Shown here one piece after another: positions 49,929 to 55,428 of a stretch of DNA of 64,000 nucleotides (position 1 is its first letter; each line of letters opens with the position of its first letter). The position numbers and the translations under genes were made by a program. Source of the DNA: Eledone cirrhosa (Eukaryota); NCBI GenBank assembly GCA_964016885.1, contig OZ024741.1, positions 216,070,001 to 216,134,000 of the forward strand, written 5' to 3'. The notes under the pieces are model-generated. The model worked only from the letters and a program-made list of their open reading frames with translations. It was not told where the DNA came from and ran no database searches.

Positions 49929-50192
49929 TATTTCTTTTATTTGCCACTGGGGCATCAAAAGTGGGACAAGTACAAAGGGGGGAGTTTACACAAAAAGGCG
50001 TCCTCAATAAGGAGGAGGCAATAACAAAATATAAAAATAAAATAAGATATAACAAAAAATAAAATTTTTAACAAAATCCTCAATAGAGAGGAGGCGCCTT
50101 GGGGGGTCGCACACACCCCCGAAAAAAGTGTGCAACCCTTCTCCTCAGGAGCACAGAGAAGGGGTGCTCCCTTGGTCTTTCATCTTCCTCAC

Positions 50193-53100
50193 CTATAGTC
50201 TGATGTAGAGTGAAGGCCCATTCACACGGGCCATTCTCGCAACTTTCACCCATCTTTCATAGAAACGGCTGGGGTGCAGCACCTCTCTCTCCATCCTGAT
50301 CCTTCTTCCGAAATGATATCGGAAGAAACGGACCAGTTGTTGGCCAGAGAGAAAGGTGCCCGACCTCAGTCCTTTCAGACGCGTCCACCATACAACCTCT
50401 TTCGCCATGGCTATTACGCACAGAAACACCGCCTCTGCTTCATCTTTGAAGGGGGGAGGCGGCTTGATCATTACAATAGACTCGGTGGTCAACCGGATCG
50501 GTCCCACCCTTGACAGCAGTTGTTCGACATAGCCCCACAGATCGGCTACGCCCGAGCAGTGTACTAATGCGTGTGCAACGGTTTCCTCGTCGCACACGCA
50601 TCTGGGACAGATCTTTTTGGCGGGGTCCCTACCCGGGCGCCCGTGTCTGTAGAGCCTTTCTCGAACGGGTAAAGCCCCTCGGTAGCACTGCCAGGCCAGG
50701 GACTTCTGGAAGTTGTCCATAGGTCCCGGGCTGAATGTCCTACCGAACAGGCTGGCCAGTTCGTCCTCCTCCATGTCTAGGGCTTCTCCGAGGGCGTCGT
50801 CGCACCTGCTGCGTACCAGCCCTCTATAGAATGTTGCGGTGGAGTCTCCACTGATAACCGGATCCGCCTGCCAGAGGGCGGTGAGCGCCTGGGCACACTC
50901 AGTGTGCCAGGCGCCCAGTTTTCTCGGTCTTTGCTTGACCCAGGATTGCAGCTCGGTGAGTGAGACGAGTCTGGGAAAGGTTCGTCTCACAAACGAGGCC
51001 CACACCGGTTGTCCGGTGAGGAATACGTAGAGGTGCCGTAGCCTTAATGCGTGTTTACGCATCATTAGCCACGGCATCCCCAGCCCTCCTTTCGAAGGGT
51101 GTTGACAGCAGATGGATCTCCTCACCATAGGAGCCCGCCTCTTCCAAAGGAATTGGAAGAGCGCGCGCTCCATCTTGGTGAGGGTTTCCCTTGGGCAGGG
51201 CACTACGGTCAGGCGGTAGTAGATGACGGACGCTATGTAGGTGTTCGCCACCTCCGCCCGGCCTTTCAGGGATAGTTTGCAACTGGCCCACTTCTGGGTC
51301 AGTGCAAACACCCTGTTCGTAACCTCCGCCCAGTTTTTCTCCACCTGGAGGTCCGGTCCGAACCAGACCCCGAGCAACTTCACCGGGCCCTCCGTCCAGC
51401 GTCCGACGACGCTATCGGAGGGCATCGGTCTGCCCCTCCACGTGCCGAGTTGCAAACCGATCGACTTGTCCCGGTTCAGCTTAGCCCCTGTGAACTTTTC
51501 GTACTCCTCCAGTAAGGTGCCGACCGCCTCGATTTCGGAGGCCGTCGACACCATTACTGTCACGTCATCGGCGTAGGCCGACACCGCTTTCCGCAATCCC
51601 GGTTCCAAAGGGATGCCCTGCAACAACTTCCGCAGTAGTGGCTCGAGAGTCAACACATACAGAAGGGAGGAGAGAGGGCACCCTTGTCGGATGGACCGCG
51701 CGATTTTGAACGGCTCCGAGAGGTAGCCGTTCACCTTGACCCTAGAGCAGATGCGGCTGCTGTGCATAGCAGTGATCCAGCCCCTGAAAACGGGTCCGAA
51801 GCCTGCCGCCGCTAGCACCGCATCCAGGTAACCATGGTCGACCCTATCGAACGCCTTAGATTGATCCAAGTTGATCAGAGCCCCACCAAAGCCGGGTTCG
51901 TTCCCAACCCTCTCTATGATGTATCGCATGAGGTGGAGGTTGTCATGGATGGACCTGGACGGGATAGCGCATGTCTGCGCATCTCCCACCAGGTTGCCCA
52001 CGACAAGCGCCAACCTCTTTGCTAGCACCTTGGCCAAAATCTGTAACTCTGTATTTAGCAGTGTTATGGGCCTGAAGTTACTTATTTCGTCCCCCTTGTT
52101 CTCGTCCTTCCTCACTAGCGTGACTACGCCCTTGGTCACAGTACAGGGAATTCTCCCGTTCTGTTGCCAGTTGCAGTAGACCGCCTCGAGGAGATCGGGG
52201 AACAAGTCCGGCATAGCTAGATATAATTCGTAAGGAAGACCATCGAGACCCGGGGATTTGCGTTTGCCGCATTGGCTCAGCACGTCCTCTATCTCAGCGG
52301 CCGAAATCGGCTCTTCGCAGGACTTCGCCTCCCTGTCCGAGAGGCGCGGCAGGCCGTCGAGGTATGGACCGAAGTCCACGTTCCCAACCGGCTCCCCGCC
52401 CCTCCCGAACAGTCGGGCAAAGTGCCTTTGAAAGGCCTCACACATCTGCTTAGGCTCAAGAATCGCCCGTCCATCCAGGTCTCGCAAAGACCGGATGGTG
52501 GATTTAGTTCCACTGTTGGCCTCTGTCACGCGGGCCCAGCTAACAGCTTTGGTCCCCTCGTTCCCTAGAGCACGTATTTTACTTCGGACAACGCAGCCTT
52601 CGTGCTTCGCGTCGAAAAACTGGCTCAAAGCCGTTCTCGACGCTAGCACTCTGGCCACGTCGCCGCTTCTAATTGCCTCTTCTACTCTATCTATTAGCTC
52701 CCTTTCCTTCCTATTCCTATCCGCAGCTAGAACCTTACTAAATTCTATCGAGACTACTCTAATCTCTCTCTTTAGAGATACCCACCACCTGCTGTTGACG
52801 ATCGCTCCAGTCAACCGTTCCTTAACTAACGTACTAATCCGATTCCTGTAGGCTCTACTTGCCGGCAAGGACAAGTTGAGCTTCCAGTAACCGGGGCCCT
52901 GTCTATGAGTTCTGTCAAGGTTGACCATGCAGGTCACTAATTTGTGGTCTGAATAGCCAACAATGCGCATTTTTGGACAACTTAAAAAGTCCTTATCCTT
53001 AATTCTAACTAAGAACCTATCTAGGTACGACCTAGATGATCCGCTACGATTTGCCCAAGTCCAGGTTGGCGCAGTCGGAAAATCTAGTCGATATCTATCG

Positions 53101-53624: not shown

Positions 53625-53648
53625 GTTGGTGGTGAAGAGAAAAGGCAC

Positions 53649-55428
53649 TTACCTCTCTGCGTCCCGGGTATCGGGCTGCACAATTTCCATTAGGGTGGGG
53701 GATGGGTTGTTGGGTGGGGTGGTGGTTTGTGGAAGTGTGGGGGCATCAGTGTGTTGTGTGGTTGGGGAGCTTGGAGTTGTGAGGGTGTTTGGGGAGGGGG
53801 TGGGATAGTTTTTTAGGAGGACGCGGTTAATGGGCCCGACGCAGGGGGGACCCACGTCCTCTTTAAAATTGTTTTTTAAAGTTTTATAGGTGTCCTGTGG
53901 GGCCTTAATCATTTTGAGGTGGGGGAAATCCCCTGCCTGGGTGAAGTTAGGCCCTTGTGTTTTTATTAGATTGTTGTTGTACACAATGTTTAACAGTTTT
54001 TTGTTTCTTGTATTTATGTATGTGTATGCATGTTTTTGTTTTTGTGTGGTGTTTTTTGTTTGCTGTTGTGAGCTCTTTTGTGTTGGTGTCAGTGTTATGT
54101 TTTGGGGAGGGTTTTTTTTCATTTGTGTGTCTGAGGTGTGTTTTCTTTTTTTTCTTTTGATTGTGTGGAAGTGCTCCTCCTCGTCTGACGACGAACTAGG
54201 GTCATCTTCCGCGTTGGAGGGGAGGGGTATATTTTCGGGTTGTGTTTGCGGTACGGGTGTTTTGGAAATTGTTTTTGTTTTTTGAGTGGAGGGGATGGGT
54301 TGGACATTGTTTTGTTTTGGTTTGAGCTGTGGTGGTTGTTTTTGTAGTGGTAGTTGTGGTGATTGTGTTGGTTGTGCAGCTGTTGGTGGTGTAGGCAGGA
54401 TTGGGGTTTTCTTATTAAGTTGGGGACAGACAGCCCTCAGGTGACCTCTGGTTCCGCAGAGGTAACACGAGGGCCGTCTACCCTCAACGGTAATGTTGAT
54501 GAAGGTTAGATCATCCAGTATGACGCGTTCAGGGATCTGGGCGATCCTTTCGGGCCTCATTTGAACTACAAGTTCGAGGCTCGTTCCACTGAACGCGTCA
54601 CCCGATGCCTTTCCCATGGACACCAGCATGTCATCCTCCAGGTCCAGAAAACCTGTCAAAACCCACCATATGTCCATAATCGGCAGGATGGTGTGGATTT
54701 TTATTTTTTTGTGTTCTTCTACCCATGTACGTAGGGTAGAAGGTGTATGCGGTGGATGTGATTGGTTTGATGGACAGTTTCACTGCTGTGTCCCTGTCCT
54801 TCATGAGAATGGATAGACTCCCGTAGAGTCTATCCTTCTGAATGAAGGTGATGTCCTTCATGACGTCTTTTAAAACCAGCTCTATCTCGCTCTGTGATGG
54901 TTGAGCTGGTTTTTTACTTTTGTTCGAGATTGTCCTAAACATGACCGTGTTTAGGAGTCTCTGGCTTTTTAGTTCCGGGGGGGAATGGATTGTGAATGAA
55001 CCATTTTCCCCGTACACTATATATTTTTTCGCATCCGCCAGTAGCTCCTTCGCTTTTGTTATATCTACTGGCAGATAGTCGAGGGTTTTCCTTGTCGTCT
55101 CGGCGAATGAGAAATTTTGTTTGTTTGTGTTGTTGTTGTCGTTGGTGGTGTTGTTGTTATCATTGTTGTTGTTGTCACCGTTATTGGTCTTGTTGTTGTT
55201 ATTGTTATTGGTGTTGTTTTCGTCCGTCGCATTGTTGTTGTTGCTGTTGCCGCTGGTTCTTTGAGTTGTTGCCATGGCAACGTCAAGTTGTCGGTTAACA
55301 GGTGGAGAGAATTCTTCCTCTGGCTGACCTTTCTTCTTGACCTCTGCTACTGTGACAGTGGCAGGGGGAAGCTGTAAGTTCATCTTCCCCTTTCCTCCTT
55401 CGAATTTTGGTGAAGAAGCTTCGGCCAT
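53649..55428 (-). CDS. Tx1-like ORF1p (gag-like, CCHC knuckle), split by one frameshift in an A-run near 54700
   Basis: ORFs 54631-55428 and 53649-54677 overlap in different frames; CYLCGTRGHLRAVC; homologous to ORF1 pieces of E1, E2, E5. Confidence 0.85.

Follow-up and report, generated by a model that had tools for sequence, protein, structure and literature searches.

A 64,000-nucleotide (nt) stretch of the Eledone cirrhosa genome (hereafter, the window; positions 216,070,001 to 216,134,000 of OZ024741.1, our contig C2 of the 3.0-Gb host genome) holds five copies or fragments, E1–E5, of one group of retrotransposons without long terminal repeats (non-LTR), all on the minus strand and four of them head to tail. 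The elements have two open reading frames (ORFs), termed ORF1 and ORF2, and the donor-like motif that overlaps the ORF1 stop codon, AG|GTAAGT in the full-length copy E3, is very likely a selected binding site for the U1 small nuclear ribonucleoprotein (snRNP); judged from the sequences of the related families, its conservation exceeds what chance and coding constraint would produce. The likeliest use of such a site, put forward here tentatively, would be the splicing of a part of the transcripts from this donor to an acceptor at the 3′ end, yielding an mRNA with ORF1 only, as in copia.

Results

A conserved donor motif at the ORF1 stop

Our survey covered 1.464 Mb, consisting of the window and stretches near known copies (a nonrandom sample with some loci duplicated), and ORF2 starts were located by protein homology. 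G|GTRRGT lies upstream of 29 of the 34 ORF2 starts; among the remaining five, two copies are truncated by (ATT)n, and the others have the single changes ATAAGT, AT|GTAAGT, and GTGAAT. The families, lettered A–L, were compared through 15 representatives, 14 from this survey together with L121. The initial annotation of the window, which proposed that ORF2 is a spliceosomal intron, had tied that proposal to the conservation of GTRAGT past the stop triplet, and such conservation is what the representatives display: G|GTRRGT stands 27 to 47 nt ahead of the ORF2 ATG in 15 of 15. Positions −1, +1, +2, +5, and +6 of the donor are invariant, −2 is A in 14 of the 15, and +3 and +4 vary between A and G only; the invariant positions are also those of the pattern used for anchoring, of which the 100 nt ahead of each ATG contain exactly one occurrence. 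Of the flanking columns, 17 upstream and 16 downstream, not one is invariant, compared with 21 of the 116 four-fold degenerate ORF2 sites (13 representatives; the comparison omits A2 and A3, which have large ORF2 deletions). For the donor sites free of coding constraint, the rough joint P is about 0.007, a post hoc product.

The donor nucleotides have been kept through changes of the reading frame that they lie in. In families A–H and K, ORF1 ends AG|G-stop, an arginine followed by TAA, TAG, or TGA; the ending is G|GT AAG TAA in family I (338 copies; 640 open codons upstream) and G|GT AAG TGA in family L (188 matches), both giving a terminal glycine–lysine (GK). As K, the most abundant lineage counted, and L are sisters, the ORF1 frame has changed at least twice while the donor nucleotides stayed. 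The stop lies at most 8 nt past the cut site in each family, this being the family state, with the single copies E1 and L121 reading further. Among ORF1 relatives at about 30% identity, P0157 ends in QGK and P0155, from Argonauta, in EGKS at the aligned position (P0156 not clearly so), endings that match what a phase-1 donor would encode.

Direct reading of the window confirms GAG AG|G TAA GT at the end of E3 ORF1, with GTAAGT at 53652-53647, and finds the other donor motifs where they had been reported: at 62973 in E5, 58940 in E4, 47760 in E2 (ATAAGT), and 12361 in E1 (GTGAGT). From the last of these, it had been argued that the stop changed from TAA to TGA while GTRAGT stayed. In that form the argument fails, since GTGAGT is private to E1 (GTAAGT is found in 23 of 25 anchored E1-like loci; 30 fetched, 5 without the anchor) and an extra A shifts the TGA of this copy out of frame; a stronger version of it holds across families, on the family comparison above. 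The ATAAGT of E2 is likewise private, with AGGTAAGT in 29 of 30 E2-like loci, and the donor is intact in 25 of 28 anchored E4-like loci. These E1-, E2-, and E4-like loci are best BLAST matches, which show the state of a subfamily and are not independent evidence.

When pairing is scored with the 5′ end of the host's own U1 small nuclear RNA (snRNA), the donor ranks best among 279 to 296 GT sites in four of five full elements; in the remaining one, K2, it is second of 317. The U1 snRNA genes occur in tandem with a spacing of ~2,674 nt (G000:C2:180973544-180995099 and C1128).

Could the motif be neutral baggage, an ancestral stop-codon context inherited within one young radiation? All families do form one radiation in one genome (ORF2 identity 68 to 96%, mostly 68 to 90%), 18% of the four-fold ORF2 sites are invariant regardless, the anchor itself was found with the donor pattern, and there are no spliced copies (below). 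We nevertheless consider this unlikely: both flanks have turned over, the donor–ATG distance ranges from 27 to 47 nt, and the stop triplet and frame change with the motif constant; moreover, GK or GKS is the ending of distant ORF1 relatives. Selection could, alternatively, act on a translational or DNA-level signal that merely resembles a donor, such as one for termination–reinitiation at ORF2, a stop hairpin, or a factor site. The position of the motif at the stop, 27 to 47 nt before a strong ORF2 start context, would suit such a signal, the GG at −1/+1 is predicted to be paired in 15 of 15 local folds, and a conserved donor of human L1 is thought to be kept through its overlap with a RUNX3 site (PMC5860796). 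This explanation seems quite unlikely, however, as hairpin energy is no better than that of shuffles in most families, hairpins show no own-versus-cross specificity (p 0.14; 0.61 for 10 clades), and the tolerated donor changes agree with U1 pairing. We did not adopt the hairpin predicted around the donor, which does not exceed composition controls.

Candidate acceptors

In E3, direct reading gives CTA TAG|G as the end of ORF2, position 50193 being the G of the TAG. A join of the donor to this site would remove 3,460 nt and recreate the arginine-stop end of ORF1 (AG+G TGA), as first proposed for this copy; the recreation is not general, the ORF1 stop after the predicted join coming 1 to 2 residues on in 7 of 11 representatives and 20 to 33 residues on in 4 of 11. 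A stop soon after the join gives weak support, the context being rich in purines and independent events few. With the exception of K, all lineages end ORF2 in TAG, which is kept in 12 lineages at the family level. TAG|G is present, as had been stated, in E5 (59516) and E2 (44359), and its lack in E4 is due to a private 12-nt deletion, TAG|G being kept in two relatives. The base after the TAG is G in most lineages, T in L, and A in two further types. Ranked by pyrimidine content among the 100 to 129 pyrimidine-AG trinucleotides (YAGs) of each of nine representatives, the AG of the ORF2 stop takes places 1, 1, 3, 4, 4, 8, 11, 15, and 19.

In the 3′ untranslated region (UTR) of lineage K, a T-run and then ACACGCAG stand at 160-179 nt in 9 of 9 resolved copies; its sister L has ACACGCAC. 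By pyrimidine score, K has a 3′ UTR YAG at 0.76 to 0.82 and the two TAG|A types have one at 0.76 and 0.82, and no TAG|G or TAG|T copy has one above 0.71 (58 surveyed 3′ ends). By its sequence, this looks like acceptor turnover in K, from the ORF2-stop TAG to a 3′ UTR CAG.

Several observations weigh against acceptors at these sites. The pyrimidine run at the ORF2 stop is short and explicable by the conserved protein tail encoded there, another AG lies within 14 nt upstream in four of the nine representatives, and no single branch motif is kept among the families compared. Lineage K has lost the ORF2-stop TAG altogether and ends in TAA, its turnover is a single event, and several TAG families also have weaker YAGs produced by T-rich 3′ UTRs; the join would, furthermore, lengthen ORF1 by 20 to 33 residues in D, F, and K. 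Of the original proposal that ORF2 is an intron, the donor side stands, being kept across subfamilies, stop triplets, and frames, while an acceptor at the ORF2 stop is plausible, only partly beyond chance, and not universal.

Further arrangements were tried and rejected. The TAG|GTGAG at the end of ORF2 fails as a second donor for want of conservation, families I and J having TAG|GC and L having TAG|TT; a small intron fusing ORF1 to ORF2 (CTAAG|A in E3, CCAG|CATG in family I) has neither its AG nor its frame conserved; and back-splicing to a 5′ UTR AG fails as that AG is limited to three types. The donor might also join an acceptor inside ORF2, giving an ORF1 fusion or an early-ending short isoform as in plant Ty1/copia, and several ORF2 YAGs of moderate pyrimidine content are indeed conserved in 11 to 13 of 13 families. 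These conserved AGs fall in conserved codons, however, ORF2 is almost without poly(A) signals, no ORF2-internal join was found in the genomic-copy searches, and the donor phase differs between families, so that no conserved in-frame ORF1–ORF2 fusion is possible; we regard an internal acceptor as very improbable.

Search for spliced genomic copies

Genomic copies in which ORF1 is joined to the 3′ UTR by a deletion running exactly from GT to AG, as envisaged in the initial annotation, were found in none of the families tested, and this too speaks against splicing. The exact E3/E5 join has no genome match, against 1,495 ORF1 ends and 2,715 ORF2 ends, and three looser patterns for the E3 donor joined to any other acceptor returned 33, 1, and 2 matches with no splice join among them, the matches being donor variants, small slips, or one deletion with the donor kept. 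The E1, E2, and E4 types gave four matches and no splices against 750 donors, and family I gave one match, a point variant, and no splices against 338 donor-bearing copies. For K, with a pattern designed for the join to the 3′ UTR CAG, five matches were obtained against 6,779 3′ ends, none with an ORF1 end (seven upstream letters compared). The join patterns were exact on one side, and mutated joins would escape them. A link between 53652 and 50193 was absent from the 15 joints listed (213 further) in contigs of four runs of unrecorded kind; contigs drop rare forms, and we do not use this as evidence.

Large ORF2 deletions do occur, and all five copies examined (L299, L300, L301, A2, and A3), which lack 1.0 to 3.3 kb of ORF2, have unique non-GT/AG breakpoints, marked by microhomology or by fills of a single base, and keep the donor. 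The break in L299 joins the 3′ end of another subfamily. With no spliced copies and with breakpoints elsewhere, splicing has not spawned ORF1-only families, and the suggestion that it generates such elements is unsupported. A further point against splicing is that the spliced RNA of the TAG families would retain its 3′ UTR in full, and some mobilization in trans might then be expected; on the other hand, mobilization in trans is the only route for an RNA without ORF2 and is a rare event for L1 (PMC5860796), and the absence of copies therefore weakens splicing but does not exclude it.

A conserved donor, a labile acceptor, and absent spliced copies are all accounted for by the main rival explanation, in which U1 snRNP binds without productive splicing, guarding the RNA from premature cleavage and polyadenylation or aiding its elongation or export, and the TAG|G at the ORF2 end is inherited. 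A second donor-like site, found 35 to 70 nt from the 5′ end in several 5′ UTRs after a GACGTG-like motif, has no conserved acceptor; U1 at the donor of the Arabidopsis element EVD suppresses premature termination (PMC5580714); and AATAAA or ATTAAA occurs 110 to 530 nt upstream of the ORF2 start in six of eight ORF1 regions scanned. Such hexamers are, however, expected by chance in an A-rich ORF1, and ORF2, with 50 to 56% GC, is without AATAAA in 11 of 13 representatives, which leaves little downstream for U1 to protect. Binding alone also leaves unexplained why the stop always lies just past the cut site and why K gained a CAG, and we consider it somewhat unlikely.

Relatives of the elements and other features of the window

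Tx1 elements have an ORF2 with an apurinic/apyrimidinic (AP)-type endonuclease, a reverse transcriptase (RT), and a C-terminal zinc-binding region and a separate ORF1 with a CCHC knuckle. In Pfam, E3 ORF2 matches Exo_endo_phos (5e-08), RVT_1 (7e-27), and zf-RVT (4e-05, below its cut-off), and the knuckle residues C339, C342, H347, and C352 are invariant in six of six aligned ORF1s. At their 3′ ends, representatives A–H continue into (TATC)n and I–L into (ATT)n, the target or tail repeat changing along the tree. A Tx1-like assignment, the label being that of the initial annotation, fits this ORF anatomy and the targeting of microsatellites; no named Tx1 reference is among the 100 matches listed. 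The named ORF1 relatives belong to Octopus and Argonauta. Identity of the genome to the queries P0003, P0157, and P0175 is 42%, 32 to 33%, and about 30%, respectively, and the P0003 loci yielded families I and J. An ORF1 word search gave no match, the P0157 search returned P0157 alone, and a metagenome scan found no DNA of the relatives in other organisms. The group is very abundant, with 122,046 first-look candidates in the genome for one ORF2 relative.

Coordinates of the features are given in the table. TTTYGTAG stands ~65 nt past the 5′ UTR donor-like site only in the E1, E2, and E3 types (the E2 example is near 49853-49785 on the minus strand), and ORF1 is there bracketed by acceptor- and donor-like sites. 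The N terminus of E3 ORF1 contains an AAC repeat encoding poly-Asn (window 55120-55250, minus strand), and related families have other low-complexity runs there. Elsewhere in the genome, ten family-I donors ~5,840 nt apart form a head-to-tail array of full-length copies (G000:C1:423365588-423418122), with pairs and triplets at other places, and just upstream of a family-I element at L174 (4422-7967, minus strand) lies a long interspersed nuclear element (LINE) with a single open frame of 1181 amino acids (aa), which we take to be RTE-like from its appearance. The window also contains two overlapping Penelope-like frames on opposite strands (25403-27466, plus; 24535-25647, minus), with GIY-YIG and, in the longer one, also RT, and, at 35888-37814 and 42657-43860, long open frames in several phases of both strands that have no Pfam match and are probably tandem repeats.

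Table. Features of the elements in the window (positions count from its first letter)
Feature	Position	Strand	Remarks
E3, full-length two-ORF non-LTR retrotransposon inside a (TATC)n microsatellite	49931..55644	−	TATC on both flanks
E3 ORF1, CCHC-knuckle family protein	53649..55428	−	Stop TAA 53651-53649; frameshifted near 54631-54779; knuckle seen in intact relatives
E3 donor motif AG|GTAAGT, U1-complementary, overlapping the ORF1 stop	53647..53654	−	Predicted cut between 53653/53652
E3 inter-ORF spacer, pyrimidine-rich	53625..53648	−	CCAAC at its end before the ORF2 ATG
E3 ORF2, open, 1143 aa	50193..53624	−	ATG 53624; Exo_endo_phos, RVT_1, zf-RVT
Predicted E3 intron, enclosing the entire ORF2	53652-50193	−	Span 3460 nt
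E3 candidate 3′ splice site at the ORF2 stop, TAG|G	50193..50214	−	Short pyrimidine run; competing CAG 50202-50200
E3 3′ UTR, predicted last exon	49931..50192	−	Purine-rich start, U-rich tract, AATAAA 49941-49936
E3 5′ UTR intron-like stretch, GTAAGT...TTTTGTAG	55546..55612	−	67 nt
E5 donor	62968..62975	−	Identical to E3 (E5 belongs to the E3 subfamily)
E4 donor	58935..58942	−	Same motif
E2 donor site	47755..47762	−	Private mutation to AG|ATAAGT
E1 donor site	12356..12363	−	Private AG|GTGAGT

Discussion

The whole of ORF2 would, in the account that we favor with less than even confidence, be a spliceosomal intron that is either retained or removed, and splicing, not translational reinitiation, would set the ORF1:ORF2 ratio, the donor having been held through changes of the ORF1 frame, possibly across octopods, and the acceptor having moved at least once. 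It is a good hypothesis, predicted from sequence constraints. U1 would bind the donor at the ORF1 stop, and a part of the RNA would be spliced to an acceptor near the 3′ end, putatively, for most lineages, the TAG that ends ORF2 and, for K, the CAG of the 3′ UTR, removing ORF2 and producing a short ORF1-only mRNA. The unspliced RNA would remain the template for ORF2 translation and insertion; the spliced RNA, with the stop recreated at or shortly past the junction, would supply excess ORF1 protein and be free of the 3.7-kb 3′ tail that would attract nonsense-mediated decay. As the cut lies just before the stop, no exon junction would follow it, which would fit an escape from this decay. A spliced RNA without ORF2 would not be mobilized in cis, which would explain why spliced copies are absent.

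Translation is the usual explanation for the excess of ORF1 over ORF2 protein that LINEs obtain from a single bicistronic RNA and for the escape of this RNA from decay; a selected donor at the stop of ORF1 points to a solution by RNA processing, convergent with that of copia. Even if U1 binding alone were the explanation, there would be a conserved U1 site within a LINE, and thousands of copies with a near-perfect donor could disturb host splicing. No report of such a donor in a non-LTR element was found in the open-licence literature (subscription papers and Repbase notes lay outside the search), and a selected donor motif at the ORF1 stop is, as far as searched, new for this kind of element.

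HAL1 (half-L1) elements contain ORF1 only, having ORF1 and the 3′ end without ORF2. The sporadic ORF2-deleted copies seen here resemble them but differ in that their breaks are non-GT/AG, the donor is kept, and splicing-derived families with ORF1 alone were not found. Within the Tx1 clade, a preference for target sequences such as microsatellites is known, for example, in Kibi and Koshi (PMC4494074), and Octopus vulgaris has 13 recently active L1-Tx1 families (PMC13282606). The accessible parts of these sources describe, in common with the present elements, an ORF2 with endonuclease and RT, a knuckle-bearing ORF1, and insertion into short tandem repeats; here, (TATC)n and (ATT)n are targeted, and the same parts mention no splice signal for Kibi, Koshi, or the O. 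vulgaris families. The donors described for human L1 lie in its 5′ UTR, and their splicing is harmful; the resulting spliced integrated retrotransposed elements (SpIREs) make up about 2% of full-length insertions (PMC5860796). The likeness lies in a long-conserved donor within a LINE and in a cis-preference that restricts the mobilization of defective spliced RNAs (PMC5860796); unlike human L1, the present elements have their donor at the ORF1 stop and gave no spliced copies.

The closest parallels come from LTR elements. The ~3-kb intron of Drosophila copia takes out the enzyme genes, leaving a Gag RNA with the normal 3′ end; in the Arabidopsis Ty1/copia element EVD, the donor is the conserved part, with U1 also blocking premature termination; and for both, splicing has been shown by RNA data (PMC5580714). 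While copia and EVD have a single Gag-Pol frame and the present elements are non-LTR, with two ORFs, a donor over the ORF1 stop, and splicing that is only predicted, they have in common a U1 site conserved downstream of the gene for the structural protein and, if the proposed use is correct, its purpose, an excess of structural over catalytic protein.

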